This document shows, one piece after another, positions 12,868 to 32,000 of a DNA stretch of 32,000 nucleotides. Position 1 is the first letter of the stretch, and every line of letters starts with the position of its first letter. A program made the position numbers and the translations under genes. The notes under the pieces were generated by a model that worked only from the letters and a program-made list of their open reading frames with translations, searched no databases and was not told where the DNA came from. Source of the DNA: Geobacter metallireducens GS-15 (GTDB lineage: Bacteria; Desulfobacterota; Desulfuromonadia; Geobacterales; Geobacteraceae); the NCBI RefSeq assembly GCF_000012925.1, contig NC_007517.1, forward strand, positions 3,630,001 to 3,662,000. The letters run 5' to 3'.

Positions 12868-13021
12868 AATAACACGGGGCAACGGAGCACACGGAGAAAA
12901 GCAAGATCCGATTTGTTCATCGCTATGATATTCAGGAGATTCCGGTTCAAAGGCTATAATCAGACCATAACACTTCGAACTTCTACGTCTTTCCCCGTGT
13001 GCTCCGTCTCTCCGTGTTATT
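12868..13021 (+). repeat. Hairpin element copy A (inverted-repeat arms 12868..12901 and 12989..13021, 86-87-nt AT-rich spacer)
   Basis: Left arm AATAACACGGGGCAACGGAGCACACGGAGAAAAG. Reverse complement of the right arm AATAACACGGAGAGACGGAGCACACGGGGAAAG. About 4 substitutions plus 1 indel between arms. Lies between tatD and tcdA. Confidence 0.85.
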
Positions 13022-13064
13022 CAATCAGCCGTTTTCAGGATATTTTTTGAAACGAGGTATTTCC

Positions 13065-13832
13065 ATGTCACCACTTCACCGCTTTTCCCGCACCGAGATC
13101 CTCATCGGCCCCGAGAAGCTCCAGCGGCTCCGCGAGTCGACCGTGGCCATCTTCGGCCTGGGAGGGGTCGGGAGCTTTGCTGCCGAGGCCCTCTGTCGGG
13201 CCGGGGTCGGTCGGCTCGTCCTCGTGGATTTCGACGACATCTGCCTCACCAACGTAAACCGTCAGCTCCACGCCATGGACGGCACGGTGGGGAAGGCCAA
13301 GGTGCAGGTCATGGCCGAGCGGCTCCGCCTCATCAACCCCGATGCGGACATCGTCCCCCACAAGGATTTCTACGAAGCCGGCAACAGCGACTTCCTCCTC
13401 TCGGGGGGATACAACTACGTGGTGGACGCCATCGATCACATCACGAGCAAGCTCCACCTGATCCGCAGCTGCCGGGAGCGGGAACTGCGGATCATCTCCA
13501 GCATGGGGGCCGCCAACAAGCTGGACCCCACGAAGATCCGCGTGGCCGACATCTCCAAGACAAGCGTCTGCGGCCTGGCCAGGGTGGTCCGCAAGCAGTT
13601 GCGCAGGCAAGGGATCAAGAGCGGCGTCACCGTGGTCTACTCCACCGAGGAGCCCCGGGAACAGGCCATTGCCGATGCCGGCTGCCGCTCCAACTGCATC
13701 TGCCCCAACAAGGAGGAACAGCGCTTTTCCTGTGAGCACCGCCGGAACATCCTCGGGAGCATCTCCTTCATCCCGAGCATTTTCGGGCTCACCATGGCGG
13801 GGGTCGTGGTGAACGATCTGGCGAAGGATTGA
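13065..13832 (+). CDS. tcdA: ThiF/MoeB-family E1-like protein, tRNA threonylcarbamoyladenosine dehydratase-like
   Basis: RFSRTEILIGPEKLQRLRESTVAIFGLGGVGSFAAEALCRAGVGRLVLVDFDDICLTNVNRQ is the nucleotide-binding fold of the TcdA/CsdL subgroup. Start set at ATG 13065; the track's 12999 start reads through the right arm of element A. Confidence 0.8.
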   Translation: MSPLHRFSRTEILIGPEKLQRLRESTVAIFGLGGVGSFAAEALCRAGVGRLVLVDFDDICLTNVNRQLHAMDGTVGKAKVQVMAERLRLINPDADIVPHKDFYEAGNSDFLLSGGYNYVVDAIDHITSKLHLIRSCRERELRIISSMGAANKLDPTKIRVADISKTSVCGLARVVRKQLRRQGIKSGVTVVYSTEEPREQAIADAGCRSNCICPNKEEQRFSCEHRRNILGSISFIPSIFGLTMAGVVVNDLAKD

Positions 13833-13839
13833 CACCCGG

Positions 13840-13867
13840 TTGAAGGTCAACAATTTGCCGCTATACT
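13840..13867 (+). promoter_or_regulatory. Candidate sigma70-type promoter for the diiron-protein gene
   Basis: TTGAAG (13840..13845), a 16-nt spacer, then TATACT (13862..13867), 43 nt upstream of ATG 13911, which has an AAAGGAGG SD. Hexamer match only. Confidence 0.35.
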
Positions 13868-13910
13868 TTCAACCAGACGCCATCGAATGGGATGAAAGGA
13901 GGATACCCGT

Positions 13911-14408
13911 ATGACGAGGGAGTATTCGGTTCAGGAGGCCCTGAAGCTCGCCATCAAGGGCGAAAAGGACAGCATGGACTTTTACCGCAAGGCCGCTTTG
14001 GTGACCAGGAATGAACGAGCGCAGAAGGTCTTCGATCTTCTGGCCAACGAGGAGGTGGGACACCTCAAGGCATTCTTCGACCACTACAAGGGAGGAGAAT
14101 TCGGCAGCGTGGCCGACTACATGGCACAGCCCCCGGACACCAAGAACCCCACGTACGTTGCCCTCATGAAGGCGGTCAACGAGGAGACCCCCGAGCAGCA
14201 GGCCCTCGAACTGGCCCTCAGGGAGGAGAAGTCCTGCATCGACCAGTACACGGTCCTTGCCAGGGACCTCATCGATCCCCTTGTCAGATCCATCTTCGAG
14301 CAGGTCATCAAGGAGACCGAAAAGCACCTGGCAATGATCGAAGAGGAGTACCGCCACGTCATGACCATGGTCCACGAGTCGGATCAGGACATCTACGTGC
14401 GGGAGTGA
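13911..14408 (+). CDS. Ferritin-like/rubrerythrin-type diiron four-helix-bundle protein (no rubredoxin domain)
   Basis: Two E...ExxH half-sites: IKGEKDSMDFY ... NEEVGHLKAF and LREEKSCIDQY ... KETEKHLAMIEEEY. Paralogous to 17420..17872. Confidence 0.8.
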   Translation: MTREYSVQEALKLAIKGEKDSMDFYRKAALVTRNERAQKVFDLLANEEVGHLKAFFDHYKGGEFGSVADYMAQPPDTKNPTYVALMKAVNEETPEQQALELALREEKSCIDQYTVLARDLIDPLVRSIFEQVIKETEKHLAMIEEEYRHVMTMVHESDQDIYVRE

Positions 14409-14441
14409 GGGAGAACATGGCCGCAGTGGGGGCATAAAAAA

Positions 14442-14468
14442 GGGCGGTCCGGAAAATTCCGGCCGCCC
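14442..14468. terminator. Bidirectional intrinsic terminator between convergent genes
   Basis: GGGCGGTCCGG-aaaatt-CCGGCCGCCC stem-loop, flanked by an A-run (14436..14441) and by TTTCT. On the minus strand (hppA transcript) the stem is followed by TTTTTTAT. Confidence 0.7.
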
Positions 14469-14495
14469 TTTCTGCGTCAAAAACTGCTTGTCACG

Positions 14496-16550
14496 TTACC
14501 CCAGCTTGGCGAGCAGCGGCACGATGAGGAGCGACACGATGTTGATGATCTTGATCATCGGGTTGACGGCCGGGCCGGCGGTATCCTTGTAGGGGTCGCC
14601 GACGGTGTCGCCAGTGACGGCGGCCTTGTGGGCGTCGCCACCCTTGCCGCCGTGGTAGCCGTCCTCGATGTACTTCTTGGCGTTATCCCAGGCGCCGCCG
14701 CCGGTGGTCATGGAGATGGCCACGAAGATACCGGTGACGATGGTGCCGACGATGACCCCGCCCAGGGCCTTGGGGCCGAGGGTGAAACCGATGATGATCG
14801 GAGCGGCGATGGGGATGATGCCGGGAATGACCATCTCCTTAAGCGCCGTCCTGGTCACGATGTCGACGCAGGAGGCGTAGTCCGGCTTGCCGGTCCCTTC
14901 CATGATTCCCTTGATTTCACGGAACTGGCGACGGACTTCCTCAACGACCGACCCGCCCGCCTTGCCAACCGCCTCCATGCAGAGGGCGGCGAAGTAGTAG
15001 GGGAGCATCCCGCCGAGGAACAGACCGACGATGATGTAGGGATCGGCCAGGTTGAAGTCAATAATCTTGCCGGCCAGCTTCAGCTCATCTACGTAGGAGG
15101 TGAAGAGGATGACCGCGGCAAGGCCGGCGGAGCCAATGGCGTACCCCTTGGTGACCGCCTTGGTGGTGTTCCCCACGGCGTCCAGGGGGTCGGTGACGGC
15201 GCGGACCGAGTCGTCCAGCTCGGCCATCTCGGCGATGCCACCGGCGTTGTCGGTGATGGGGCCGTAGGCGTCCATGGCGACGACGATGCCGGTCAGCGAC
15301 AGCATGGAGACGGCGGCAATGGCGATGCCGTAGACTCCGGCGCACTGGAAGGCGACGATGATGCCGGCGGCGATGACGATGACCGGCATGGCGGTGGACT
15401 TCATGGAGACGCCGAGGCCGGCGATGATGTTGGTGGCGTGGCCGGTGGTGGAGGCCTGGGCGATGTGCTTAACCGGCCCGTACTCGGTGGCGGTGTAGTA
15501 TTCGGTGATCCAGAAGATGGCACCGGTGACCACGAGGCCCACGATGGCGGAGATGAAGAGGTTGGTGGCCGAATAGGTCACCCCGGCGGCAGTGGTCAGC
15601 CCCTGGGGGAACATCTGGGCGGTCACCACATAGAAGGCGATGCAGGCCAGGACGCCGGAAGCGATGAGCCCCTTGTAGAGTGCGGGCATGATCTTCTGGT
15701 TGCCGCCCAGCTTCACGAAGAAGGTGCCGATGATGGAGGCGACGATGGAGATGCCGCCGAGGATCAGCGGATAGTTGACGGCGGCGACATTGCCGGTGAA
15801 GGCGATGGCGCCGAGGAGCATGGCGGCGATGAGGGTCACGGCGTAGGTCTCGAACAGGTCGGCGGCCATGCCGGCGCAGTCACCCACGTTGTCCCCCACG
15901 TTGTCGGCGATGACCGCCGGGTTGCGGGGGTCGTCCTCGGGGATGCCGGCCTCCACCTTACCCACCAGGTCGGCGCCCACGTCGGCACCCTTGGTGAAGA
16001 TGCCGCCGCCGAGACGGGCGAAGATGGAGATGAGCGAGCCGCCGAAGCCGAGGCCCACAAGCTGGCTGACCACCTCTTTCACCGGGGCGCCCGGCATGAC
16101 CTGCTGGAGGATGAAGTAGTAACCGGCAACACCCAGGAGCCCCAGACCCACCACCAGCATGCCGGTAATGGCGCCCCCCTTGAAGGCCACGTTGAGGGCC
16201 TTGTGGATGCCGGATTTGGCCGCTTCCGTGGTGCGGATGTTGGCGCGGACCGAAACGAACATGCCGATGAAGCCGGTCAGTCCCGAGAAGAGGGCGCCGA
16301 TGGCGAAGCCGATGGCGGTTTTCATCCCCAGGGTAGCGAACAGGGCGATGAACATGATCACCCCGACGACGGCGATGATGGTGTACTGGCGCTTCATGTA
16401 GGCGCCGGCACCCTCCTGGATGGCTGCCGCAATCTGGCGCATCCGGTCGTTGCCCTGGGGGAGCCCCAGAATCCACTGGGCCGAAACGAGGCCGTAGGCG
16501 ACGGCCGCCACGGCACAGGCCAGGGCGAAATAAACTGCATACTGTTCCAT
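14496..16550 (-). CDS. hppA: Membrane-bound proton-translocating pyrophosphatase, K+-independent type
   Basis: 684-aa polytopic protein with GGG(I/L)[52 protein letters not shown] and [13 protein letters not shown] motifs. AGGAGG SD 7 nt upstream of ATG 16550. Confidence 0.95.
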
Positions 16551-16743
16551 TTACCAACCTCCTGACAAAATAGCCTGCGAAAGGCTTTGAACCTGCTCGA
16601 ACCAGACAATGCTCCAAGAGAGCAAAAAACGTAACATTGTTATAGAACGTCTGAAGTTTTGTCAATGTTAAATTACCGGATCCCGACCGTCACTCTCAAG
16701 TAGTCGAGGCGGAAACAGGACCTTCATCAACAGGGGAATCCAC

Positions 16744-16772
16744 TTGACTAGCGGCATCGATTGCAATAAAGT
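16744..16772 (+). promoter_or_regulatory. Candidate sigma70-type promoter for the Fur/PerR-like gene, overlapping an 8-bp palindrome
   Basis: TTGACT (16744..16749), a 17-nt spacer, then TAAAGT (16767..16772). The palindrome ATTGCAAT (16760..16767) overlaps the -10. The ATG at 16784 is only 11 nt downstream with no SD, so the mRNA may be near-leaderless. Confidence 0.3.
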
Positions 16773-16783
16773 ACCAACCTAGT

Positions 16784-17230
16784 ATGGATTGTCCTCTTGC
16801 ATTCAAAAAGGAAAAACTCCGCCACCTTGAAGACGGCTGCCGCCAAAACGGCCTCGCCATGACCGTCCAGCGCCGCGTCGTCCTGGACGCCCTTGCGGAG
16901 CGCACGGACCACCCATCCGCCGACCAGCTCTACGATGCGGTCCGCGGAAGGCTCCGGGGAATTTCCCGCACCACCGTCTATCGGGTTCTGGAAACCCTCG
17001 TGGGAATCGGCGTTGTCCAGAAGATCAGCAACCCCGAGTCCAAGGCCCGGTATGATGCCAATACGGTGCGCCATCACCACATCCACTGCATTCGCTGCGA
17101 AAAGATCGAGGACATGCACACCCCGGCCCTTCACCTCGCGCAGCAGGTGCCCATCGCCACGGAAAGCGGCTTTACCATCGTCGACTATTCCATCAACTTC
17201 AGCGGGATCTGCCCCGACTGTCGTTCATGA
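16784..17230 (+). CDS. Fur-family transcriptional regulator, PerR-like by context
   Basis: GLAMTVQRRVVLDAL (winged-helix start), RTTVYRVLETLV (recognition helix), HHHIHCIRCEKIED and CPDC (structural Zn Cys pairs). Located immediately upstream of rubredoxin-type, diiron and flavodiiron genes. Confidence 0.85.
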   Translation: MDCPLAFKKEKLRHLEDGCRQNGLAMTVQRRVVLDALAERTDHPSADQLYDAVRGRLRGISRTTVYRVLETLVGIGVVQKISNPESKARYDANTVRHHHIHCIRCEKIEDMHTPALHLAQQVPIATESGFTIVDYSINFSGICPDCRS

Positions 17231-17254
17231 CCCATCACGCGAAAGGAGGACAGG

Positions 17255-17365
17255 ATGAAAAAATGGAGATGCGTTGTCTGTGATTACATTCACGAGGGAC
17301 CGGAGCCGCCCGAGATCTGTCCCGTTTGCGGAGTCGGCAGGGACCAGTTCGAGGAAGTTGAATAG
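17255..17365 (+). CDS. Stand-alone 36-aa rubredoxin-type Fe(Cys)4 protein (rubrerythrin C-terminal-domain-like)
   Basis: Not in the ORF track (too short). ATG 17255 is preceded by AAAGGAGGA. Translation: [36 protein letters not shown], with two CxxC pairs spaced as in the rubredoxin-like domain of rubrerythrins. Stop TAG 17363..17365. Confidence 0.75.
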
Positions 17366-17419
17366 ATTTGTTTGTCTGCAATGAACGAGAACTCAAACCT
17401 GCCAGGGAGGGGAGACAGC

Positions 17420-17872
17420 ATGGAATTCAAGACCCTTGACGATATCATCAAATTCGCCGTTGAGCGGGAAGAAAACGCCTACCAGCTCTACAAGACCGCT
17501 GCCCAGAAGGCCACCAGCATCTCGGCCCGCAAGATGTTCGAGGAGATGGCGAACGAAGAGGCAGGCCACAAGACCGCCTTCGAAAGACTGGACATCGAGG
17601 GGGCTGAAAAGTACTCTCTCGCCGACCGCCCTGACATGAAGATCGCCGAGTACATGGTGGAGATGCCCTTCCGGGACGACATGAGCTACCCCGAAATCCT
17701 CCGCTACGCCATGAAGACTGAAGAGAATGCGTACAAACTCTATACGGCCGCGGCCGAGTTGACCGACGACCCCAAGTTCAAGCGGATGCTCTTGGTGCTC
17801 GCCGACATCGAGAAGGGGCACAAACAGAAGATAGAGGCGGTTTACGACGAACGGGTCCTTACCGAGATGTAA
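17420..17872 (+). CDS. Ferritin-like/rubrerythrin-type diiron protein (no rubredoxin domain)
   Basis: Start set at MEFKTLDDIIKFAVEREENAYQLYK with a GGGAGGGGAG SD upstream. Half-sites: EREENAYQLY ... NEEAGHKTAF and KTEENAYKLY ... DIEKGHKQKIE. Confidence 0.8.
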   Translation: MEFKTLDDIIKFAVEREENAYQLYKTAAQKATSISARKMFEEMANEEAGHKTAFERLDIEGAEKYSLADRPDMKIAEYMVEMPFRDDMSYPEILRYAMKTEENAYKLYTAAAELTDDPKFKRMLLVLADIEKGHKQKIEAVYDERVLTEM

Positions 17873-17892
17873 CTCTTCAGGCTACTGACAAC

Positions 17893-17925
17893 GGGGGCGC
17901 CGAGGCGCTCCCGCTCTCGTTTTAC
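17893..17925 (+). terminator. Weak terminator/attenuator-like hairpin between the diiron-protein and flavodiiron genes
   Basis: GGGGGCGC-cgag-GCGCTCCC (7 of 8 paired), followed after 5 nt by TCGTTTTA. The T-tract is short and displaced. Confidence 0.3.
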
Positions 17926-17974
17926 CCGCCGGAAGGCATGCCGACGGCAACCAAACACCATATAACAGGAGGAT

Positions 17975-19195
17975 ATGCCAGTGAAGGCTGTTGAGATAAA
18001 GAAAGATATTTACTGGGTCGGCGCCGTCGACTGGGCAGTGCGTGATTTCCACGGCTACGAGACCCCCCGGGGCACCACCTATAACAACTACCTGATCATG
18101 GACGACGAGATCACCCTCATCGACACGGTCAAGTATGATTTTGCCACCTACACCCTCAAGAACATCAGCGGGGTGGTGGACCCGGCACGGATCAAGAACG
18201 TTATCATCAACCACATCGAAAACGACCACGTCACGAGCCTCGACTGTGTCATGGATCTGGCCCCCAACGCCACCATCTACATCTCGGAAAAGGGGAAAAA
18301 GGGGCTTGAGCGCTTCTTCGACCTCTCCCGCTGGAACGTGAAGACGGTCAAGACGGGGGACACCCTCACCATCGGCAAGCGGACCCTCGAATTCCTCGAA
18401 ACCCCCATGCTCCACTGGCCCGACTCCATGGTGACCTATGCCCGTGAAGACAAGATCCTCTTCACCCAGGACGCCTTTGGCCAGCACGTGGCCTCGGCAA
18501 ACCGCTTCGATGACGAGTACGAGATTTCCAACTCCCCGGTCGAACTGGAAGACGCGGTCGTCGACTACTACGCCAACATCCTCATGCCCTTCGGCCAGAT
18601 GATCAAGACCAAGATTGCCGAGATCCAGGCAAAGGGATTCGAGATCGACATAATCGCTCCGGATCACGGCCTCATCTGGCGCAAAGACCCCGGCAAGGTC
18701 CTCGGCATGTACCTGGACATGGCCAACGGCAAGGCCCGGGAATCGGTGGCGATCATCTACGACACCATGTGGCAGAGCACCGAGAAGATGGCGGGCCCCA
18801 TCGCCGAAGGGGTCAGGGCCGAGGGTCTCAACTGCCAGATCATCAAGCTGCGGGCCACCCCCACCAGCGTCGCCATCAAGGAATTCTGGAAGTGCCGTGG
18901 CGCCCTCATCGGCTCACCGACCCTCAACAACATCCTCTTCCCGAGCGTGGCCGAATTCCTCACCCACCTGCGGGGCCTGCGCCCAAAAAACCGGATCGTC
19001 GGGGCCTTCGGCAGCTTCGGCTGGGGGGGCGGCGCCGTGAAGGAGTCCTACGAGGTGTTCAAACAGATGGGGCTCCAGACCGTGGAACCGGGAATCCAAC
19101 TCGCCTACCGTCCTTCCCTGGCCGACGAGGAGGCCTGCTTCGAATTCGGCCGCACCTTCGCCCGCCAGGTATCCGAGTACCACAAGGGGTTCTGA
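17975..19195 (+). CDS. Flavodiiron protein (FprA / rubredoxin:oxygen oxidoreductase family)
   Basis: Metallo-beta-lactamase-like domain with the diiron motif NHIENDHVTS (HxExDH). C-terminal flavodoxin domain (VAIIYDTMWQSTEKMA ... GSPTLNN ... FGSFGWGGGA). AGGAGG SD upstream. 406 aa. Confidence 0.92.
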   Translation: MPVKAVEIKKDIYWVGAVDWAVRDFHGYETPRGTTYNNYLIMDDEITLIDTVKYDFATYTLKNISGVVDPARIKNVIINHIENDHVTSLDCVMDLAPNATIYISEKGKKGLERFFDLSRWNVKTVKTGDTLTIGKRTLEFLETPMLHWPDSMVTYAREDKILFTQDAFGQHVASANRFDDEYEISNSPVELEDAVVDYYANILMPFGQMIKTKIAEIQAKGFEIDIIAPDHGLIWRKDPGKVLGMYLDMANGKARESVAIIYDTMWQSTEKMAGPIAEGVRAEGLNCQIIKLRATPTSVAIKEFWKCRGALIGSPTLNNILFPSVAEFLTHLRGLRPKNRIVGAFGSFGWGGGAVKESYEVFKQMGLQTVEPGIQLAYRPSLADEEACFEFGRTFARQVSEYHKGF

Positions 19196-19201
19196 TCCCC
19201 C

Positions 19202-20464
19202 ATGGACCTGCACTACGGCGACACCTCATTCACCCTGACGCTTCCCCCGGAGCGGCTTCTCGGCGTCATCCGCCCGGAAATCGGCGTACCGGTCGACAGG
19301 CCCGAAACGATCATCGCGGCCGCCCTCGACCGGTGCGCCGAAACGATCGGCACCTTCCGGCCCGGGGAGCGGGTCGTCATCGTCACCTCGGATATCACCC
19401 GCTACACCGGGAGTGAGCTCTACCTGCCGCTTCTCGTGGAACGACTGGTGGCCACCGGCATCCGGGAGCGGGACATGGAAATCCTCGTGGCCCTCGGCAT
19501 CCACCGGAAGCAGACGGAGCATGAGCACCAAAAGATCGCCGGCCCCCTCCACGGCCGGATCCGGATCGTGGACCACGACTGCGACGACCCGGGGCAGTTG
19601 GCCTTCATCGGCCGCACCTCCAACGGCATCGAGGTGACCGTGAACCGCCGGGTGGTGGAGGCGGACCGGGTCATCCTCACCGGCACCATCGGTTTCCACT
19701 ACTTCGCCGGTTTCGGTGGGGGGAGAAAGAGCATCCTCCCCGGCGTGGCGTCCCGGGCAACGTGCATGGCCAGCCACTTCGCCGTCCTGAACCCCGGCGA
19801 GGGGACCGGCAAGAACCCCCTGGCCGTTACCGGCAACCTGGAGGGGAACCCGGTCCACGGCGCCATGGTGGAGGCGTGCGCCATGGTGGAGCCCGACTTC
19901 ATCCTGAACACGGTCCTCTCCCCGGACAAGCGGATCATGGCCGCCTTTGCCGGCCCTTGGCGGGAGGCCCACGAAGAGGGGTGCCGCTTCTACGCCGAGC
20001 GGTTCGCCTGGCCGCTCCGGGAGAAGGCGGATCTCGTCGTGGTCTCCTGCGGCGGCTTCCCCAAGGACATCAACGTCATCCAGTCCCACAAGGCCATGGA
20101 GTACGGTAGCCAGGCACTGAAGGAGGGGGGGGTCATGGTCCTCCTGGCCCAGTGCCGGGACGGCTACGGCAACGCCACCTTCTTCGACTGGTTCCGGTTC
20201 AGGGATCTGGGCGCCTTTGAGACGCGGCTCCGGAGCCACTACGAGATCAACGGCCAGACCGCCTACTCCCTGCTCCAAAAAGCGCAGAAATTCCGCGTCA
20301 TCCTCGTCTCGGAGCTTCCGCCGGAGGAAGTCCGCACCATGGGAATGACTCCAGCAAGGAGCCTCGACGAGGCCATGGCACAGGCGGCGGAGTTCCTCCC
20401 GGCCGACTACACCGCCTACGTCATCCCCGAGGGGGGAACGGTGCTGCCGGTAATAAAACCATGA
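19202..20464 (+). CDS. larA: LarA-family nickel-pincer-dependent 2-hydroxyacid racemase/epimerase (lactate racemase-like, DUF2088)
   Basis: VIVTSDITR, ALGIHRKQT and TGTIGFHYFAGFGGGRKSILPG match LarA-family conserved His and Lys positions as I remember them. 420 aa. The ATG lies 6 nt after the flavodiiron stop. Confidence 0.85.
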   Translation: MDLHYGDTSFTLTLPPERLLGVIRPEIGVPVDRPETIIAAALDRCAETIGTFRPGERVVIVTSDITRYTGSELYLPLLVERLVATGIRERDMEILVALGIHRKQTEHEHQKIAGPLHGRIRIVDHDCDDPGQLAFIGRTSNGIEVTVNRRVVEADRVILTGTIGFHYFAGFGGGRKSILPGVASRATCMASHFAVLNPGEGTGKNPLAVTGNLEGNPVHGAMVEACAMVEPDFILNTVLSPDKRIMAAFAGPWREAHEEGCRFYAERFAWPLREKADLVVVSCGGFPKDINVIQSHKAMEYGSQALKEGGVMVLLAQCRDGYGNATFFDWFRFRDLGAFETRLRSHYEINGQTAYSLLQKAQKFRVILVSELPPEEVRTMGMTPARSLDEAMAQAAEFLPADYTAYVIPEGGTVLPVIKP

Positions 20465-20573
20465 AATAACACAGAGCAACTGAGCAACAGAGTTGAAAAT
20501 CACAAGACAAGTTCTTTGAACGTTTTGTATTTTAGCTTTTGATTTCTCAGTTGCTCTGTTGCTCTGTGTTATT
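20465..20573 (+). repeat. Hairpin element copy B (arms 20465..20492 and 20546..20573, 53-nt spacer), GCAAC-type variant
   Basis: Left arm AATAACACAGAGCAACTGAGCAACAGAG. Reverse complement of the right arm AATAACACAGAGCAACAGAGCAACTGAG (26/28). It begins on the nucleotide after the larA TGA and ends 16 nt before the glcD-like ATG. Confidence 0.85.
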
Positions 20574-20589
20574 CAAGAACAGAGGTAAC

Positions 20590-21992: not shown

Positions 21993-22151
21993 AATAACAC
22001 GGAGAGACGGAGAGCACGGAGTTCCAGTACTATCAGGAAATTAGATTCACAAATGATTTCCTCATAATTCGACGATCAGCTGGACTTCTCAAAACACTTC
22101 TTCTTTTTAGTTACGAGCTTTTCTCCGTGCCCTCCGTCTCTCCGTGTTATT
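21993..22151 (+). repeat. Hairpin element copy C (arms 21993..22021 and 22123..22151, ~101-nt AT-rich spacer)
   Basis: Left arm AATAACACGGAGAGACGGAGAGCACGGAG. Reverse complement of the right arm AATAACACGGAGAGACGGAGGGCACGGAG (28/29). The spacer holds an inner 7-bp hairpin AGGAAAT...ATTTCCT. Confidence 0.88.
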
Positions 22152-23432: not shown

Positions 23433-23437
23433 TCCGG

Positions 23438-23485: not shown

Positions 23486-23597
23486 CCCCTCTGGAAAAAT
23501 CGTTCTATAGTCTCCTCAATGACGGTATCCATCTCTCCCTCCCCGCTCCAATCCCCCGTCTATTCTGACAAATTAAGTCAAGATAAAAATTATTTTA

Positions 23598-23627
23598 TTG
23601 ACAGTACAAACCACTTTAGGGTATGTA
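23598..23627 (+). promoter_or_regulatory. Candidate sigma70-type promoter for the XRE-cupin regulator in an AT-rich stretch
   Basis: TTGACA (23598..23603), an 18-nt spacer, then TATGTA (23622..23627), about 48 nt upstream of ATG 23676. Hexamer match only. Confidence 0.3.
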
Positions 23628-23675
23628 AATGCTGAATAAAAACCAGTTTTATTTCTTTCTTCAACGGGGTAGCGG

Positions 23676-24239: not shown

Positions 24240-24368
24240 ACCGACACCCCCCTCAGACAACCCGTTTTTTTATGCAGAATCGTATACATAATCACCTTTA
24301 AACGTGCACGGAACTCAACAGGAGGGATTTCGCAATGCGACTGTTGAAAAAATCTACCAACCGGAAGG

Positions 24369-26102
24369 ATGGCCGCGATGTCTAAGAATGCAATCAAACC
24401 GCAACTCAAGAACCCGTTTGACCCCCCCGAGAAAGTAGAATTTACCATCCCTGGCGAAATCTCTCGGACGACCGGCCCCTACGAGGAGGCGATACAGGAG
24501 GGATACGACCTCATCCAGCGCCCCATCAAGTCGGTCAAGATCGACCAGATCGAGAAACAGCACTTCAAGAAGCGGATGACCGTGTGGGAACGCCTCAAGG
24601 TCCTCTCCGACCAGGCTCCCAACGTCCTGTACCAGAACTGGGGCAAGAACCTGGACGGTGCCTCCCTGGTGACCGCCATCATGAATATCGGCGGCCGCGA
24701 CGTTGCGGTCTACGGCCATGACTTCACTGTCCGGGCCGGCTCCATCGATGCCACCAACGGGAGCAAGCTGGCCAAGCTTTTCAACCTGGCCGGCGAGAAG
24801 GGGATTCCCCTCATCGGCATGAACGACTCCGCGGGCGCCTTCGTGCCGGCCGGGGTCGGCGGCCTCGACGGCTACGCCGAGGCATTCACGGCCCTGCGCA
24901 AGATCAGCGGCGTGGTCCCCTCCATCATGTGCATGTTCGGCTTCAACGCCGGCGGCGGCTCCTACCTGCCGCGGCAGGGGAGCTTCGTCATCCAGCCCAA
25001 CGAGACCTTCTTCGGCCTCACCGGCCCCGGCGTCGTCAAGTCGGTCCTCGGCGAGGACATCACCCCCGACGAGCTGGGGGGGCCCAAGGTCCACGGCAGA
25101 TCGGGCGTAGCCGACCTGACCGTTTCCGATGAACTTGCCGCCCTCCGCACGGCGGTCCGCCTCCTCTCCTACATTCCCGACAACAACAGCGTGGGGGCTC
25201 CATTCCAGAAGACCAGCGATCCCCTGGACCGCAAGACCTGGGAGATCAACACGCTCCTGAAAAAAGCCTTCAACTCCCCCACCGGCTTCAACACGCCGTT
25301 CGACGTCTCCATCATCATCCAGCAGATCTGCGACCACGGCGACTACTTCGAGCTCCAGCCCGAGCGGGCCAAGGAAGCGGTCACCGCCTTCGGCCGCCTC
25401 GGGGGCCAGGTGGTCGGCTTCGTGGCCAACAACTCGGCGGTGGCCTCGGGACAGATCGACTGCGACTCGGCGGTGAAGATCGCCCGTTTCGTCCGGTTCT
25501 GCAACATCTACAACATACCCATCATCTTCATGGAAGACACCACCGGCTTCCTGCCGGGGCGCGAACAGGAGAGCCGCGGCATCGTCCAGGCGGGCCGCTC
25601 CATGCTCGACGCCATCGTCGACGTCCGGACCCCGCGGATCCTCCTCATCCTCCGCAACGCCTTCGGCGGCGCCTACGCGTCCTACAACAACTACCCCACC
25701 GGCGCCGACCTGGTGCTAGCGCTTCCCACCACCCGCCTCGCCGTCATGGGGCCCGCCGGCAAGGAATTCGTCTACAAGGACGAACTGCGCAAGATTCGCG
25801 GAACCGTGGCCGAGATGGTCAAGAAGGGGACCGAGGAGCGGATCTGTGCCGGCACGGAAGCCGCGGCAGCCAAACGGGATGCCGAGAAGGAAGCCGCCGA
25901 GTGGCTCAAAGGCCAGGAAGCGACCCTGAACCAGCGGTACGAAAAAGAACTGATGAACCCGAAGGAAGGTCTAGCCCTGGGCTCCATCTCCTCCATCGTC
26001 ATGCCAACCGACCTGCGCCAGGTCCTGGGCGAAAACATCGCCTTCCTGATGCGGCACTACAAGCCGTCGCCCATGTGCGGCCCGCAGCGCGAGTTCCACT
26101 AG
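24369..26102 (+). CDS. Acyl-CoA carboxylase carboxyltransferase subunit (propionyl-CoA carboxylase beta / methylmalonyl-CoA decarboxylase alpha / GcdA-like)
   Basis: Two crotonase-like CT halves ([20 protein letters not shown] ... GMNDSAGA ... [10 protein letters not shown]; [10 protein letters not shown] ... [11 protein letters not shown] ... [11 protein letters not shown]). The ~70-aa C-terminal extension resembles the long GcdA/MmdA forms. Alternative start at ATG 24378. Confidence 0.9.
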
Positions 26103-26109
26103 ATTATTG

Positions 26110-26232
26110 AATAACACAGAGACACGGAGGACACGGAGAAAAACCTCTTGAACGGTTTCACCTGCTGTGCCGAGGCTTACCCCAATTAATGGTTTTAGCC
26201 GTTCTCCGTGCCCTCAGTCTCTCCGTGTTATT
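26110..26232 (+). repeat. Hairpin element copy D (arms 26110..26140 and 26202..26232, 61-nt spacer)
   Basis: Left arm AATAACACAGAGACACGGAGGACACGGAGAA. Reverse complement of the right arm AATAACACGGAGAGACTGAGGGCACGGAGAA (27/31). Lies between the carboxyltransferase and biotin carboxylase genes. Confidence 0.85.
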
Positions 26233-26274
26233 GATCAGGCATTTTTCATTCTAATGAATTGGAGATAGAGACCA

Positions 26275-29154
26275 ATGACCGACCTGTACATGAACAACCC
26301 CTTGATTCACCGGGACCGTCGTCTCGGCGCGTCCGATTCCGAGTGGGTGCGCTCCTTTGCCTGCGAGGACCTGAAGCCGCTCATCGTCTGCCGCGGCCCC
26401 ATCCGCAAGGAGGCCATGGATGTCTATGAGGAGATGGGGATCACCCACTACGGTATCCTCCTCTCCGAGAAGGACTCCATCGTCTACGCCAACGCCCTGG
26501 CTCCGGAACTGCGCCAGCTGACCGATTCCAACCGGGTCCACCGGGTGCCTGACTACACCGGCGCCTCCAAGGAGGAGCGGGTCGAGCGGATCGGCCAGAT
26601 CATCCAGATCGCCAAGGACAACGGGTACGACGCCATCTTCGCCGGCTACGGCTTCATGGCCGAGGACGAGGAGTTTGTCGCCGCCATCGAGAACGCCGGC
26701 CTGTCGTTCATGGGCCCCAACTCCCGCACCCAGGCCGACGCCGGCAAGAAGGACGAGGCCAAGCGGACCGCCCTCCAAGTGGGGGTCAGCGTCACCCCGG
26801 GCATCAACAACGTCACGGCCCGGACCCTGGTCAAAAAGCACCAGACCCGCGAGGCGCTCCTGGCCCTCGTGCCGGCCCAGGGGCTCGACGTGGACGCCAA
26901 GGTCCTGAAAGACACCAAACTCTCCCTTGAGGAGTTGGCCGACGCCATCCTCTACGCCTCCTACGCCAAGGGTATCGACCTCTACTCCATTGAGGAGCTC
27001 TCCGCCCAGGTGCAGGTGGAAGTGGCGAACATGTTCACCGAGTACCCCGGCAGCCGGATCCGCCTCAAGGCCATTGGTGGCGGCGGCGGCAAGGGGCAAC
27101 GGATCCTCGGCGCGTCGCTGCTGAACACCAAGAAGCCGACCGAGGCCCAGGTCAGGGAAGCGGCCGCCGAGGCCCCCGGCCTGGTCCGGGAGGTCCTCAA
27201 CGAGGTCAAGGCCAACGGCGTGGGGGACAACAAGAACGTCCTCATCGAGCTCAACATCGAGCAGACCCGCCACAACGAGATCCAGCTCCTGGGCAACGGC
27301 GAGTGGTGCATCTCCATGGGGGGTCGCGACTGCTCCCTCCAGATGCACGAGCAGAAGCTCCTTGAAATCTCCGTCACCCAGGAAGGGCTTGCCCTGGCCA
27401 TCGACAAGGCCAAGGCTGCCGGGCGCAAGGCCGAGGTGAAGGCCCTGGAGAGCGACCTCAAGGTGCTCAAGCGGATGGAGGAAGATGCCGCCAAGTTCGG
27501 CGCCGCCGTGGGGCTCGACTCCGCTTCCACCTTCGAGTGCATCGTGGACCGGGACCGTTACTACTTCATGGAAGTGAACACCCGCATCCAGGTGGAGCAC
27601 CGGGTCTCCGAGCTCTGCTACTCCCTCAAGTTCACCAATCCCAAGGACAAGAACGATTTCTTTATCGTCGAGTCCCTGGTGGAGGCCATGGCCCTGCTGG
27701 TGAAGCACAAGAAGCGGCTCCCCAAGCCGGAGCGGATTGCCCGGTTCGCGGCCGGCGCCGAGGCCCGCCTCAACGCCACCGACGCCTCCCTCTCCCCCCA
27801 TGCCGGCGGCATGATACGGTACTGGTCGGATCCCATTGAAGGAGAAATCCGCGATGACCAGGGAATCTGCCTGGTCAACCCCGACACCGGCATGTTCATG
27901 CGCTACAAGGTGGCGGGCGCCTACGACTCCAACATCGCCCTGCTCCTCACCAAGGGAGAGGACCGCCTCGACAGCTACCTGAAGCTTTCCGAAGTTCTGG
28001 GCAAAACCATCCTGCGCGGCACCGACCTGGCCACCAACCTGGAGTTCCACTACGGCCTCGTCAACTGGTTCCTTGGCCAGAACGTCATGGCCAAACCGAC
28101 TACCCGTTTCGTGGTCCCCTACCTGACTCTGGTGGGGCAGCTGAAGGAAGAGGCCAACAAGCTCGACACGGTCTTCGCCTTCATCCAGATGAAGAAGGCC
28201 TACGCCAGGAAGGTGGCCGCCCAGTTCCCCGACGACCCGAAGATCGCCAAGGAGATGTCCGCCATCCTCGACCGAAAGGGAACCCTGGTCACCCGCCCCA
28301 TGGACCGGCTCCTGGCCGACCCGCACCTCCTCTCGGGGTGGCTCTCCATCAACCGCAGGAACTTCACCATGGAAAACGGGAAGGTAATCTGGCACGACAA
28401 CCCCTTTGTGATCCTGGCAGACACCTACGAGTATCTGAACATGTCCTACGACCCGGCGGCACCGGCAGCCGACGTGATCTGGGACCATGACAACGACCTG
28501 CTCCAGAAGGGACTCCGCTTCTACACGACCCTGGCCGGCCATTTCAAGCTGGGGCTCCACGAGTTCGACGCCCTTTCGGCCATCCTCGTCAAGGAGAAGC
28601 CCCAAGGCGGGTTCTCCGACGAACGGTGGCTCGAAATCCAGTCCGCCCACATGGGCTTCGAGGCCGGGCTTGAACTCCTCGGCATGCTCTTCATCATCGC
28701 CGATACCGTCAAGTTCTGGGACTTCAAGGTTGAGGACGACCTGGAAGTCACCATCCCCGACTACCTGAACGATCCGGAGCTGCAGGCCAGGATGAAGAAG
28801 ATTCTCGTTCCTCCCCCCGCCACCAAGGCCGACGAGATCGTCGCCATGTGCGGCGGCATGTACTACGGCCAGGAGGCGCCGGGCATGCCCGCCTTCGTGT
28901 ACGAGGGGATGCACTTCGAGAAGGGGCAGGCTCTCTACATCATCGAAGTCATGAAGATGTTCAATACCGTGCGAGCCACCTTCTCAGGCACCATCGACAA
29001 GATCATTATGCAGGGCGCCGACGGGAGCATCGTCCAGAAGGGGCAGCCCCTCTTCAAGGTCACGCCCGACGAGAAATTCGTCGAAGTGAACCCGGAAGAG
29101 GTGGAACAGCTCAAACGGGAGCGGACCGCGGCCTATCTCAAGGCCGTTCTCTAG
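26275..29154 (+). CDS. Atypical long biotin carboxylase (ATP-grasp) fused to a C-terminal biotin carboxyl carrier domain
   Basis: BC motifs KAIGGGGGKGQR, RDCSLQMHEQK and EVNTRIQVEHRVSE. C-terminal biotinyl domain with EVMKMFNTV (biotin-Lys motif). 959 aa, with insertions inside the ATP-grasp and a ~300-aa central region I cannot assign. Confidence 0.88.
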   Translation: MTDLYMNNPLIHRDRRLGASDSEWVRSFACEDLKPLIVCRGPIRKEAMDVYEEMGITHYGILLSEKDSIVYANALAPELRQLTDSNRVHRVPDYTGASKEERVERIGQIIQIAKDNGYDAIFAGYGFMAEDEEFVAAIENAGLSFMGPNSRTQADAGKKDEAKRTALQVGVSVTPGINNVTARTLVKKHQTREALLALVPAQGLDVDAKVLKDTKLSLEELADAILYASYAKGIDLYSIEELSAQVQVEVANMFTEYPGSRIRLKAIGGGGGKGQRILGASLLNTKKPTEAQVREAAAEAPGLVREVLNEVKANGVGDNKNVLIELNIEQTRHNEIQLLGNGEWCISMGGRDCSLQMHEQKLLEISVTQEGLALAIDKAKAAGRKAEVKALESDLKVLKRMEEDAAKFGAAVGLDSASTFECIVDRDRYYFMEVNTRIQVEHRVSELCYSLKFTNPKDKNDFFIVESLVEAMALLVKHKKRLPKPERIARFAAGAEARLNATDASLSPHAGGMIRYWSDPIEGEIRDDQGICLVNPDTGMFMRYKVAGAYDSNIALLLTKGEDRLDSYLKLSEVLGKTILRGTDLATNLEFHYGLVNWFLGQNVMAKPTTRFVVPYLTLVGQLKEEANKLDTVFAFIQMKKAYARKVAAQFPDDPKIAKEMSAILDRKGTLVTRPMDRLLADPHLLSGWLSINRRNFTMENGKVIWHDNPFVILADTYEYLNMSYDPAAPAADVIWDHDNDLLQKGLRFYTTLAGHFKLGLHEFDALSAILVKEKPQGGFSDERWLEIQSAHMGFEAGLELLGMLFIIADTVKFWDFKVEDDLEVTIPDYLNDPELQARMKKILVPPPATKADEIVAMCGGMYYGQEAPGMPAFVYEGMHFEKGQALYIIEVMKMFNTVRATFSGTIDKIIMQGADGSIVQKGQPLFKVTPDEKFVEVNPEEVEQLKRERTAAYLKAVL

Positions 29155-29173
29155 CAGGCCCTGCCCGCATCCG

Positions 29174-29206
29174 CCGGCCCCGCCCGGAAAGGCGGGGTCG
29201 GTTTTT
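29174..29206 (+). terminator. Rho-independent terminator after the BC-BCCP gene
   Basis: CCGGCCCCGCC-cggaaa-GGCGGGGTCGG (10 of 11 paired), followed by TTTTT (29202..29206). Confidence 0.7.
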
Positions 29207-29260
29207 ATGGGCCGGCCGAATTGCCTTGCCTGAACTAACACCAACATTCGGGAGGATACC

Positions 29261-29896
29261 GTGAGAAAAGGAAAACTTATCGTCATTGAGGGAATCAGCG
29301 GCTCGGGCCAGCAGGTCAAGGCGGCCATCGTGGGGCTGCACAAGGCGCTGACAGGAATGAAATACGACGTGGTCGAATGCGCCAACCCCGATTCCGGCCG
29401 GGCAAAGGAACTCGGGATCGACAATCTTCTCAACTGGCCCTTCGGCAGGACCCCCCGGGCCGACTTCATGTTCGAGGCCGCGGTCCGGACCGAGGTCTTC
29501 AAGAACATCGTCGAGCCGGCGCTCCAGGATGACAAGATCGTCCTGTGCAAGCAATCGAGCATCTCTTCCCTGGCAAACGCCTGGGTCAGCGGTTACACCA
29601 AGCATTTCGACGTGCTGCGCCATATCGAAAAGCTTTCCCGGGGATTTCTCTTCGAGGATGAGATCTATCCGGACCTGACCCTCTTCATCGACGTGCCGGC
29701 CCAGGAGGCCTTCGAGCGGATCGAGGATGTCCTGCAGATCCACCACGAAGGGGGCATCGAATACTATGAGAAGATGCGGGAGTTCTATCTCAAGGAGATT
29801 TCCCGCTGGCATGGCGCCAGCATCGCCGCTGGAGCCGACAGGTCGGAAGAGGAGATAAACGCCGACATCTGGGCCAAGGTTCAAACCATCCTCTAG
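29261..29896 (+). CDS. Thymidylate-kinase-fold protein with degenerate P-loop (likely not a bona fide dTMP kinase)
   Basis: GTG start with a [24 protein letters not shown] aligns to the Tmk motif KFIVIEGxxGAGKTT, and PDLTLFIDV aligns to PDLTxYLDV. The Walker-A Lys-Thr is Gln-Gln, and the DR(Y/H) motif position reads CKQ. Confidence 0.7.
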
Positions 29897-29988
29897 CCGC
29901 ACAACCCACCGACGCGCCCCTGCTGAACACCACGGCGGGGGCCGTTTTCATTTTCAGGACACGAATTATCCACCGGAAGGAGAACACC

Positions 29989-31647
29989 ATGAGCATCAGC
30001 GACAAGAAACAGGCCTGGCAGGACACTGTCGTGGCCAAGAGCATCGCCAGATCCCCGGAGCGGAAGCCCGAATTCCGCACCACTTCCAATATCGAGATGG
30101 AGCGCTGCTTCACTCCCGGCTTCGACGACTATCCGGGCTACGAAGAGGAGCTCGGCTTCCCGGGCCAGTACCCCTTCACCCGCGGCGTCCAGCCCACCAT
30201 GTACCGGGGCCGCTTCTGGACCATGCGCCAGTACGCCGGTTTCGGCACGGCCAAGGAATCCAACGAGCGCTACAAATATCTGCTTCAGGCGGGTCAGACC
30301 GGCCTTTCCGTCGCCTTCGACCTCCCCACCCAGATGGGGTACGACTCCGACGCCGCCATGGCCCAGGGCGAAGTTGGTAAAGTAGGGGTCGCCATCGACT
30401 CCCTGGCCGACATGGAGATCCTCTTCGACGGCATCCCCCTGGACAAGGTCTCCACCTCCATGACCATCAACTCCACCGCCGCTATCCTCCTAGCCATGTA
30501 CATCGCCGTGGCCGAGAAGCAGGGTGTCTCGCCGGAGAAGATTTCCGGCACCATCCAAAACGACATCCTCAAAGAATACATGGCCCGGGGGACTTACATC
30601 TACCCCCCCCAGGAGTCGATGCGGATCATCACCGACATCTTCGCCTACTGCAAAGACAACGTCCCCAAGTGGAACACCATCTCCATCTCCGGCTACCACA
30701 TCCGCGAGGCGGGCTCCAGCGCCGTGCAGGAAGTGGCCTTCACCCTGGCCGACGGCATCGCCTACGTGGAAGCCGCCATCAAGGCTGGCCTCAACGTGGA
30801 TGAATTCGCCCCCCGGCTCGCCTTCTTCTTCAACGCCCACAACAACCTCTTGGAGGAAGTCGCCAAGTTCCGGGCCGCCCGCCGCATGTGGGCCACCATC
30901 ATGAAAGAGCGGTTCGGGGCCAAGGATCCCAAGTCCCTCATGCTCCGCTTCCACACCCAGACCGCCGGCTGCACCCTCACCGCCCAGCAGCCCGACAACA
31001 ACATCATGCGGGTCACCATCCAGGCCCTGGCCGCCGTTCTCGGCGGCACCCAGTCGCTCCACACCAACTCCCGCGACGAGGCCCTGGCGCTCCCCACCGA
31101 AGACTCGGTCCGGATAGCGCTCCGCACCCAGCAGGTCATCGCCTACGAATCGGGCGTGGCCGACTCCATCGACCCCCTGGCCGGCAGCTTCCTCGTGGAA
31201 TCCCTCACCGACCAGATCGAAATGGCCGCCACCGAGTACATCAACAAGATCGACTCCCTCGGCGGCGCCGTCGAAGCCATCTCCCGCGGCTTCCAGCAGA
31301 AGGAAATCCAGGACTCCGCCTACGCCTACCAGCGGGCCATCGAAACCGACGACCTGATCATCGTCGGGGTCAACAAGTTCACCGTCACCGGCGAGCCGGC
31401 CCCCGAGCTTCTCAAGATCAAGGAAGAGGTCGAAATCGCCCAGAAGAAGTCCCTCGGCGACATGAAGGCCAAACGCGACGACGCAAGGGTCAAGGAAACC
31501 CTCGCCGCCCTCGCCGCCGCCGCCAAGGGAACCGACAACCTCATGCCGCCGATCCTCAACGCTGTCAAGGCCTACGCCACCCTCGGCGAAATCGCCAACG
31601 TCCTCCGCGACGTCTTCGGTGTCCACCGGGAGACGGTGGTGCTGTAA
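29989..31647 (+). CDS. Methylmalonyl-CoA mutase-type acyl-CoA mutase, catalytic (substrate-binding TIM barrel) subunit without B12-binding domain
   Basis: [93 protein letters not shown]. It ends in the linker region, and no DxHxxG cobalamin domain is present. Confidence 0.93.
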
Positions 31648-31651
31648 TTTT

Positions 31652-32000
31652 ATGGGAATAACACGGAGAGACGGAGAAACGGAGAAAAAGCTCTTAGAAT
31701 CAGAATTGACCGACCTGATTATTGGCAAAGCCATTGTTGTCCACAGTACGCTCGGTCCAGGGCTTCTCGAATCAGTTTATGAAGCCTGCCTTGCCTATGA
31801 ATTATCAGAAGCCGGCTTACACGTAGAACGTCAAAAGGTTTTGCCGGTACGATACAAGAACATCAACCTTGATGATGGACTCCGCATGGATCTGGTTGTC
31901 GAAAACAGGATCATTCTCGAATTGAAGTGCGTTGACACCATTCTCCCGGTCCACGAAGCACAGCTTCAGACCTATTTGAAGCTTTCAGGATTGAGAGTTG
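31652..32000 (+). CDS. GxxExxY protein (PD-(D/E)XK nuclease-like superfamily), C-terminus beyond window end
   Basis: Not in the ORF track (no stop in the window). My translation from ATG 31652: MGITRRDGETEKKLLESELTDLIIGKAIVVHSTLGPGLLESVYEACLAYELSEAGLHVERQKVLPVRYKNINLDDGLRMDLVVENRIILELKCVDTILPVHEAQLQTYLKLSGLRV. It contains G-L-L-E-S-V-Y (GxxExxY) and a D...ExK-like pattern (MDLVV...ELK). About 47% GC over 31701..32000 by hand count, against about 67% in a mutase sample. Confidence 0.8.
   Translation, partial: MGITRRDGETEKKLLESELTDLIIGKAIVVHSTLGPGLLESVYEACLAYELSEAGLHVERQKVLPVRYKNINLDDGLRMDLVVENRIILELKCVDTILPVHEAQLQTYLKLSGLRV
31657..31690 (+). repeat. Hairpin element copy E, left arm only (partner arm expected beyond the window end)
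   Basis: AATAACACGGAGAGACGGAGAAACGGAGAAAAAG. The first 20 nt are identical to the left arm of copy C. It lies inside codons 2-13 of the GxxExxY ORF. Confidence 0.85.

Follow-up and report, generated by a model that had tools for sequence, protein, structure and literature searches.

Intergenic hairpins of Geobacter metallireducens and a GxxExxY nuclease gene as probable parts of one foldback repeat family

We analysed a 32,000-nt stretch of the Geobacter metallireducens GS-15 genome (contig NC_007517.1, positions 3,630,001 to 3,662,000; hereafter the window) that holds five intergenic hairpin elements, copies A to E. Copy E is the full-length form, and its cargo is a gene for a small RecB/Cas4-like PD-(D/E)XK nuclease of the GxxExxY family (Gmet_3252). 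We incline, by somewhat more than an even chance, to the explanation that the hairpins form a dispersed foldback repeat family of Geobacteraceae, made up of a nuclease-carrying full-length unit and gene-less copies, and resembling the repetitive extragenic palindrome (REP) doublets known as REPINs with their REP-associated tyrosine transposases (RAYTs), with a different enzyme. The repeats themselves have been known since 2009; the nuclease cargo of copy E, the link between gene and arms, the wide occurrence and the turnover of the elements are new here.

Five hairpin elements and the nuclease gene of copy E

The five-copy hairpin family had been noticed in a preliminary description of the window, and the observation is confirmed. 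Direct reading and a scan with the 12-mer AATAACACNGAG found all five copies at the coordinates given there. With up to two mismatches the 12-mer had 10 matches in the window compared to 3.1 expected, a count that none of 100 shuffles reached, and nine of the ten are the arms of copies A to D and the left arm of copy E. The features are as follows.

Copy A (Gmet_I216A/B), 12868..13021: gene-less hairpin of 154 nt, arms at 12868-12899 and 12990-13021, between tatD and a ThiF/YgdL-family gene
Copy B (Gmet_I122A/B), 20465..20573: 109-nt hairpin with class 1 units GCAACNGAG, without an inserted insertion sequence (IS)
Copy C (Gmet_I217A/B), 21993..22151: 159-nt hairpin between glcD-like and glcF-like genes
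Copy D (Gmet_I218A/B), 26102..26233: the 132 nt absent at the site in relative L213; hairpin proper at 26110-26232
Copy E (Gmet_I219A/B), 31657..32000, crossing the window end: full-length form, left arm at 31657-31689
Gmet_3252, 31652..32000, plus strand: GxxExxY/PDDEXK_3 nuclease gene, 136 aa as called, running past the window end

Each arm consists of about three tandem NNACNGAG units closed by a AATAACAC cap, and the arms of an element are inverted and 28-36 nt long. The three units of 7-9 nt that the preliminary description assigned to each arm are visible directly in the sequence: the cap AATAAC is followed by AC-GGAG, NNAC-NGAG and N(2-3)AC-GGAG, and the arms of copies A, C, D and E carry CTCCGTG/CTCCGTC units. 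A repeat finder ranked the pairs of copies A to D as the four top inverted repeats of the window, with 28-36 nt, 87-93% complementarity and 53-101 nt between the arms, in agreement with the 28-34-nt reverse-complement arms aligned earlier by hand. The arms are 32 nt in copy A (88% complementary, 90 nt apart), 28 nt in copy B (93%, 53 nt apart, reading GTTGCTCT/GTTGCTCA), 36 nt in copy C (89%, 101 nt apart) and 31 nt in copy D (87%, 61 nt apart). Copies A to D measure 109-159 nt and enclose an AT-rich non-coding loop; the AT-rich spacers described before are borne out by a loop G+C content of 26-49% compared to 62% for the window. Copy E is 439 bp long in the genome (window-equivalent end 32095) and is complete in contig L001, which is identical to the right part of the window and holds the copy at 9534-9972 with its right arm at 9940-9972. 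In some subfamilies homology runs about 20 nt past the AATAAC cap, and the cap includes TAA in one frame.

The preliminary description had stated that no transposase lies in the window. That part stands, family profile searches having found neither transposase nor integrase among the window proteins, but the nuclease gene inside copy E, which runs from 31652 past the window end, had been overlooked. Gmet_3252 matched TIGR04256 (“GxxExxY protein”) with E 3.8e-44 and 149.8 bits (cut-off 35) and PF13366 (PDDEXK_3) with E 1.6e-43 and 148.2 bits (cut-off 22). Residues E40, D80, E90, K92, Q104 and Y108 are invariant in an alignment of 35 relatives and make up the D..ExK plus QxxxY signature. The gene’s ATG precedes the left arm by 5 nt, and the arm is translated as an N-terminal extension, GITRRDGETEKK, predicted to be disordered; an alternative start, TTG, is found at 31706. 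The AlphaFold (AF2) model has a predicted local distance difference test (pLDDT) score of 89.2, with the arm-encoded residues 1-14 below 50, and among solved structures Cas4 SSO0001, lambda exonuclease and Hjc resolvases come closest in fold, with modest template modelling (TM) scores of 0.4-0.55. PADLOC reported a weak similarity to Cas4; a PDB sequence search with the nuclease and a search of PHROGs gave no match. The open reading frames (ORFs) of the Geobacteraceae cassettes are under purifying selection, with non-synonymous divergence (pN) of 0.11-0.21 compared to a saturated synonymous divergence (pS) of 0.72-0.88. The family has at least 7,979 cluster representatives at E <= 1e-5, and a 2012 superfamily survey listed its function as unknown. 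In the literature searched for GxxExxY, PF13366 and TIGR04256, which barely mentions the family, we found no paper tying it to repeats, and one may exist outside that literature.

All flanking genes are plus-strand housekeeping genes, namely tatD, the ThiF-family gene, larA, the glcD-like and glcF-like genes, a carboxyltransferase gene, a 959-aa biotin carboxylase fusion and methylmalonyl-CoA mutase. The elements thus lie between co-directional genes, 0-23 nt past a stop codon and 15-43 nt ahead of the next start, as the preliminary description held. Copy B begins immediately 3’ of the larA stop and its right end is 16 nt 5’ of the glcD-like start; the right end of copy C is 3 nt 5’ of the AAAGG ribosome-binding region of glcF. 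We rejected the notion of a ribosome-binding site borne by copy C, as this AAAGG is native to glcF and also present in G. sulfurreducens, which has no element there. A common orientation of all copies, claimed earlier, is not demonstrable because the arms are near-palindromic. The sole mark of polarity is TTTTAG, which is present in copies B, C and D as described and in the orthologous elements of L016 and L078; it is missing from copy A and does not mark the family generally. Two negative assignments of the preliminary description were upheld. The elements are not canonical terminators, the terminator scan listing no site at any of them and canonical sites elsewhere, at 29173 and 29916, and they are not a CRISPR array, the repeats being inverted pairs kilobases apart.

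Folded as single strands, the elements were far better than shuffles, with z of -4.6 to -8.7 as RNA and -5.2 to -7.9 as DNA. Copy A has an RNA minimum free energy of -57.9 (z -6.4) and copy C of -67.4 (z -8.7), and the arms also pair in the predicted fold of the whole copy E unit (z -4.9). These folds bring up an RNA-level role, in which the 28-36-bp stems would act as RNase III processing sites or as protective 3’-end hairpins that set cistron levels, and would be kept for that reason; REP stabilisers and the hairpin intervening sequences excised from 23S rRNA would be comparable cases. The very stable predicted stems favour such a role, as do the position of all five copies between co-directional genes without terminators and a nuclease ORF that is embedded in a hairpin and apparently translationally coupled upstream. 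On the other side, copy D folds better as antisense, and the arm mismatches on the sense strand are A.C in 19 cases and G.U in 10, opposite to the prediction (not significant, p 0.14). No Rfam family reached the gathering threshold in the window, where permissive settings gave only sub-threshold plant-miRNA hairpin models. Together with the comparisons among relatives described below, these results make the RNA-level role an unlikely explanation of the family.

The repeats were catalogued in G. metallireducens by Aklujkar et al. (2009; PMC2700814) as “predicted global regulator (IHF/HU) binding sites”; the suggestion in the preliminary description that multicopy intergenic repeats had been noted in Geobacter genomes as putative regulator sites is correct and refers to the class 1 and class 2 paired sites of that paper. 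Class 1 has GTTGCTYN units in 24 pairs, class 2 comprises 47 sequences (21 pairs) with three TCTCCGTS[Y] units, and in both the sequences are mostly paired, on opposite strands and at variable distance, with 45 such pairs in the genome (PMC2700814). Unit consensus, opposite-strand pairing and variable spacing all agree in assigning copies A, C, D and E to class 2 and copy B to class 1. The published tables place I216 between tatD and the YgdL gene and I122 between Gmet_3244 and Gmet_3245, and they also list I217, I218 and I219, the last adjoining Gmet_3252 and Gmet_3253 and enclosing a gene for a ‘conserved hypothetical protein’; the Pfam gene order of the window agrees with these neighbours, and its mutase is 100% identical to that of G. 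metallireducens. Our copies are therefore I216, I122, I217, I218 and I219, and the elements were already known as sequence features. The sites were taken as unique to G. metallireducens, G. sulfurreducens being without such repeats (PMC2700814), whereas here they are widespread in Geobacteraceae, polymorphic among relatives and form the arms of GxxExxY nuclease cassettes.

Aklujkar et al. suggested combinations of IHF/HU proteins as binders and called the correspondence of protein to site unknown (PMC2700814), which itself counts against their proposal. Applied to the window, the elements would be sites of a host global regulator or nucleoid protein (integration host factor, IHF, or HU) that bend DNA and tune the neighbouring operons, and the nuclease of copy E would be incidental. 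Tandem short units with AT-rich loops do suit protein arrays, and it is the arm sequence, not pairing alone, that is conserved. The bacterial interspersed mosaic elements of Escherichia coli with IHF sites provide a precedent. The IHF consensus WATCAANNNNTTR is nonetheless found in none of the five elements, and its single window match (26295-26307) lies outside them. Taken with the evidence on the protein family and on turnover presented below, we regard the regulator proposal as distinctly improbable.

Insertion sequences accompany many class-1 sites at a fixed distance (PMC2700814). ISGme8 (IS110 family) adjoins at least 13 of the 24 class-1 pairs, and a transposase gene of ISGme8 or ISGme9 (IS481 family) lies beside at least 14 of the 24 (PMC2700814, supplementary file 5). 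REPs are known IS110 targets, and the association suggests that the hairpin or its loop may be an IS110 (bridge-RNA) target in the same way.

Gene and arms across the GxxExxY family

We compared the surroundings of 80 metagenome loci picked by protein similarity alone (41-77% identity), the arms having no part in the selection. The 160 nt upstream of each gene were aligned with the reverse complement of the 215 nt downstream, and an inverted repeat was counted at a score of at least 20; 167 segments from the same loci, shifted by 0.9-2.4 kb, served as controls, and 73 of the 80 loci had enough flank. Flanking inverted repeats were recovered at 48 of the 73 testable GxxExxY loci, compared to 5 of the 167 controls (Fisher p 4e-26). 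The arms of the family consist of three to four tandem units of 7-9 nt, and the unit is lineage-specific (CACGGAG, CACGAAG, CGCGGAG, CGCAAAG, CGCAGAG, CGCCGAG, CACAAAG or GCCAAG). Bacteroidota loci found through the DNA pattern have the same arrangement. The gene-plus-arms architecture is general for the GxxExxY family across phyla, which argues against regulator sites with an incidental nuclease.

Many gene calls begin 5’ of the arm, with the result that the arm is translated (ITRRDGETEK, NKTQRHGGTEK, KHRGTETQR), and other GxxExxY genes have their ATG immediately after the arm. Translational coupling with the upstream gene is suggested by three Geobacteraceae cassettes, where start and mutase stop codon share letters in a TAATG overlap. 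None of 40 GxxExxY loci scanned lies within a ribosomal RNA (rRNA) gene, a result that also speaks against the RNA-level role. In one Bacteroidia metagenome-assembled genome (MAG; L040, 5530-5765), the GxxExxY gene is followed by three tandem right arms, each in a unit of about 100 nt that comprises an arm and a spacer.

Dispersal, turnover and arm constraint

The short copies are dispersed and polymorphic between close relatives. Further copies are abundant: in addition to the 45 published pairs of G. metallireducens, the arm pattern recovered at least 120 stretches, mainly from Geobacteraceae and Desulfuromonadales and including G. hydrogenophilus, G. argillaceus and Pelotalea chapellei. Among the matches listed, 84 of 147 arm hits have a reverse-complement partner, at distances that cluster at 70-180 nt, and a second size group consists of four elements of 438-439 bp, all with the gene. 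In one subfamily the arms, the loop and about 20 nt of outer stem are homologous in seven genomes and at two loci of one genome; the homology ends at the element ends, and the flanks of the two same-genome loci are unrelated. The arm flavour (CAAC as opposed to AGAC/AGCAC spacers) tends to be genome-specific, and in the few genomes available the short copies have the flavour of the cassette in their own genome. Around the cassette of G. metallireducens, five pairs fall within 18.8 kb compared to 0.21 expected from 45 pairs per genome (P 3e-6). Other repeats are nested in some hairpin loops, namely a GTAGGCCGGTTCAAGCG palindrome and a CCCTCCC/GGGAGGG element (L019 1748-2039; L024 2728-3082).

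The copies show a position bias. A codon-usage gene caller, which settled only about half of the contexts in other genomes, resolved 18 as co-directional, 5 as convergent and none as divergent, and the class-2 table of PMC2700814, as read here, gives 16 co-directional, 5 convergent and no divergent pairs. The lack of divergent contexts is in keeping with a role in RNA; it counts against regulator sites, as no resolved element lies in a divergent promoter region.

Orthologous sites differ between relatives. Abundant further copies, the position bias and these differing sites each go against an outcome that the preliminary description had named as refuting it. The mutase of relative L213 has 91.7% nucleotide identity to that of G. 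metallireducens, and site D is cleanly empty in L213. The empty site reads CACTA|ATCAATTTT and the filled one reads CACTA, then the insert GATTATTG..element..G, then ATCAGGCATTTTT, a 132-nt indel whose break lies inside the carboxyltransferase stop codon (window 26100-26102), TAA when empty and TAG when filled. At sites B and C, L213 has degenerate elements that are shorter and carry different arms. It lacks the cassette, and the 19 kb that correspond to four of the G. metallireducens copies contain no intact cap. Beside the differing elements, the last three larA codons (window 20450-20464) also differ between G. metallireducens and L213. The larA-glcD spacer, the site of copy B, is 31 nt long and empty in G. 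pickeringii, contains an unrelated palindrome in G. sulfurreducens and has a lone CGCAAAG-type arm in a metagenome relative. At the position of copy C, 5’ of the glcF orthologue, hairpin elements occur in L016, L078 and L105 (only the glcF-side flank matched the window), a decayed element in L088 and none in G. sulfurreducens. The glcD-glcF spacer of G. pickeringii (L209, about 4880-5060) has about eight tandem CTCTGTG-type units in the right arm and three in the left, without an AATAAC cap, which indicates that the unit number can expand. As a candidate target-site duplication, L123 has a possible 7-nt repeat, a single case. In the sampled relatives without the cassette at the mutase/epimerase junction, the hairpins are degenerate or absent.

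A different palindrome, GTAGGGGCG...CGCCCCTAC, takes up the larA-glcD spacer in G. sulfurreducens (L207, about 3436-3495) and the mutase-epimerase spacer in L213 (about 11668-11705). It occupies the sites of copy B and of the cassette, suggesting that operon spacers are hot spots for several repeat families.

Sites that are gained, lost and decayed among close relatives with unchanged operons are hard to reconcile with a conserved regulatory role, and the decay or loss of copies in relatives with the same operon likewise counts against hairpins kept for their effect on mRNA.

All the 438-439-bp Geobacteraceae cassettes that we found occupy one mutase/epimerase junction, in at least eight genomes (G. 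metallireducens, L214, L216, L060, L109, L110, L055 with a pseudogene, and L128). Relatives that are interleaved with these genomes lack the cassette at this junction, namely L213, G. sulfurreducens, G. pickeringii and G. uraniireducens. A comparison of G. metallireducens with L216 gives 100% and 96% identity for the two arms but 57% for the third codon positions of the enclosed ORF. Among close relatives (L001 compared with L216 and L214), third-codon identity is 0.83-0.90 for the mutase, 0.75-0.80 for the epimerase and 0.57-0.61 for the nuclease ORF between them, reflecting either a faster neutral rate or a separate history of the cassette. The L214 cassette (4009-4447) has flanks about 93% identical to those of G. 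metallireducens; its left arm has class-1 units, ACAGAGCAACAGAGCAACTGAG, and its right arm class-2 units. These hybrid arms look like the product of patch-wise arm conversion and indicate that the unit array persists rather than the pairing. Conservation of the arm sequence far exceeds that of neutral sites, also where the two arms have ceased to pair. Both the persistence of a cassette with mismatched hybrid arms and the conservation of arm sequence in place of co-variation are contrary to an RNA-level role.

The single junction raises the alternative that the cassette is a free-standing homing-endonuclease-like gene for the mutase/epimerase site, and that the short hairpins are unrelated or only historically related and share arms, for example by gene conversion. 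PD-(D/E)XK homing endonucleases exist, and the Gmet_3252 model has a weak Foldseek match to I-Bth0305I. Occupancy of exactly one junction, with absence from interleaved relatives, is the pattern such a gene would give, and a third-codon divergence of the ORF two to four times that of the flanking genes between close relatives fits allele replacement, although the higher synonymous divergence may just reflect weak codon bias. A homing gene would leave unexplained the heptamer-array arms on two thirds of the family members in unrelated lineages and contexts, the cap and units common to gene-less hairpins and the cassette of the same genome, and the clustering of short copies around the cassette. 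We therefore give this alternative a small share of the probability, similar to that of the RNA-level role.

Elsewhere in the window, intrinsic terminators at 29173-29202 and 29916-29942 bracket a thymidylate-kinase-like gene (29261-29896) inside the carboxylase-mutase cluster; one Desulfuromonadales MAG lacks this gene and has in its place, between carboxylase and mutase, a hairpin element of 118 nt (L110, 1036-1153). Two long ORFs overlap near the left end of the window. The real gene is probably the minus-strand ORF (568-3558, 996 aa), which matches DUF11 and TPR and has the better codon score; the plus-strand ORF (1360-3627, 755 aa) is without a Pfam match.

Proposed mechanism and comparison with known systems

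Under the explanation that we prefer, a foldback repeat family with a nuclease-carrying unit, the arms would be the binding array of the element-encoded nuclease, which would act in trans to make or maintain the copies, as RAYT transposases serve REPINs. Cleavage might take place at the hairpin or at a cruciform and be followed by copying or repair. The position of the elements, past the stop codon of one co-transcribed gene and short of the ribosome-binding site of the next, would be the only one at which they are tolerated, and the nuclease, which would have no promoter of its own, may be translated by coupling to the upstream gene, through the TAATG overlap or an ATG right after the arm. 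Each copy would form a 28-36-bp stem on the operon mRNA, and any effect on processing or stability would be a by-product and not the selected function. The central step would be recognition of the unit arrays by the nuclease and, on the model of RAYTs and REPINs, its production or upkeep of the hairpins; for this we consider the chances about equal either way. The role proposed for the nuclease is supported by the clustering of copies by the cassette, by the degenerate or absent hairpins where the cassette is missing and by the ISGme8/ISGme9 association, which is like that of IS110 elements with REPs. The interpretation in the preliminary description is partly supported. A miniature mobile element is the best supported of the three roles it offered, and a binding array for a repeat-recognising protein is compatible with that role; the third, an mRNA stabiliser or processing site, gains no support from the counts of arm mismatches.

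Several points weigh against this explanation. All Geobacteraceae cassettes sit at one junction, so the gene looks resident and not hopping. The loops of the short copies have no similarity to the cassette interior beyond shuffles (z at most 1.6); the short form is therefore not recognisable as a deletion derivative, an origin that had been suggested by a by-eye similarity which the shuffles did not support. The sole clean pair of empty and filled sites, at site D, shows no target-site duplication. A related glcD-glcF element occurs in G. pickeringii, which lacks the cassette at the mutase/epimerase junction. Measured against RAYT genes, the nuclease gene is flanked by arms, occupies one conserved junction in at least eight genomes and is missing from interleaved relatives. 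The genome-wide census is incomplete, its 120 or more stretches being a lower bound, and G. metallireducens is not among the matches listed, its copy counts coming from PMC2700814. Finally, action of the nuclease on the arms, whether binding, cutting or mobilisation, is inferred.

A broader proposal, to which we give a little less than an even chance, is that GxxExxY nucleases and inverted heptamer-type arrays together make up a class of foldback element, mobile or domesticated, that spans phyla and has not been described so far; it would parallel REPIN-RAYT, with a RecB/Cas4-like nuclease as its enzyme. Gene-less hairpins would arise or be kept up through recognition of the arrays by this nuclease, and in Geobacter they would have been mistaken for regulator sites. 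The 2009 IHF/HU reading implied that regulation in G. metallireducens is very different from that in G. sulfurreducens, and our evidence favours, instead, a repeat system that is selfish or domesticated. For a very large orphan family of proteins it also offers a concrete proposed context, in which a small nuclease is paired with its cognate array of short DNA units. Should the nuclease indeed act on the arms, the system would be a second answer, by another mechanism, to the REPIN-RAYT way of life, could provide a source of compact DNA-binding nucleases specific for sequence arrays, and would account for assembly breaks and intergenic variation in Geobacteraceae operons.

The elements have features in common with several known systems. 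Like integron attC sites, they are imperfect inverted repeats of 60-140 nt after the stops of co-directional genes, with AAC...GTT ends; we rejected this identity, as the termini are GAATAAC compared to RYYYAAC and GTTATTC compared to GTTRRRY, no integrase or attI is found in the window, and the flanks are syntenic housekeeping genes and not cassettes. The hairpin intervening sequences of 23S rRNA with small ORFs are also similar, having a stem of inverted ends and an optional small ORF inside a transcribed unit. Our elements, unlike these, lie between protein genes, and no rRNA match was found in the window or at the 40 related loci. Terminal inverted repeats, small size, mostly non-coding copies and presence/absence polymorphism are shared with miniature inverted-repeat transposable elements (MITEs) and foldback (FB) transposons. 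Eukaryotic FB elements have inverted termini of tandem short repeats and an occasional coding insert. The contrasts with MITEs are that no target-site duplication was seen at the one clean pair of empty and filled sites, that the interior of the short copies does not stem from the coding element and that the putative enzyme is not a known transposase.

The closest parallel is with REPIN-RAYT systems, in which REP doublets are served by a single-copy, vertically inherited IS200/IS605-type tyrosine transposase. Both systems have inverted hairpin doublets dispersed between genes and a protein gene flanked by the same repeats, located at a conserved locus and under purifying selection. In both, the repeat flavour is genome-specific, the repeats degenerate where the gene is absent, and IS110-family elements use REPs, and apparently the present repeats, as targets. 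The differences are that the protein here is a PD-(D/E)XK nuclease of about 125 aa and not an HUH tyrosine transposase, that the arms are arrays of tandem 7-9-nt units and not a single REP palindrome, and that mobilisation is here inferred. The system thus appears to work like REPIN-RAYT but is not a member of that group, because the defining transposase is replaced by a PD-(D/E)XK nuclease.

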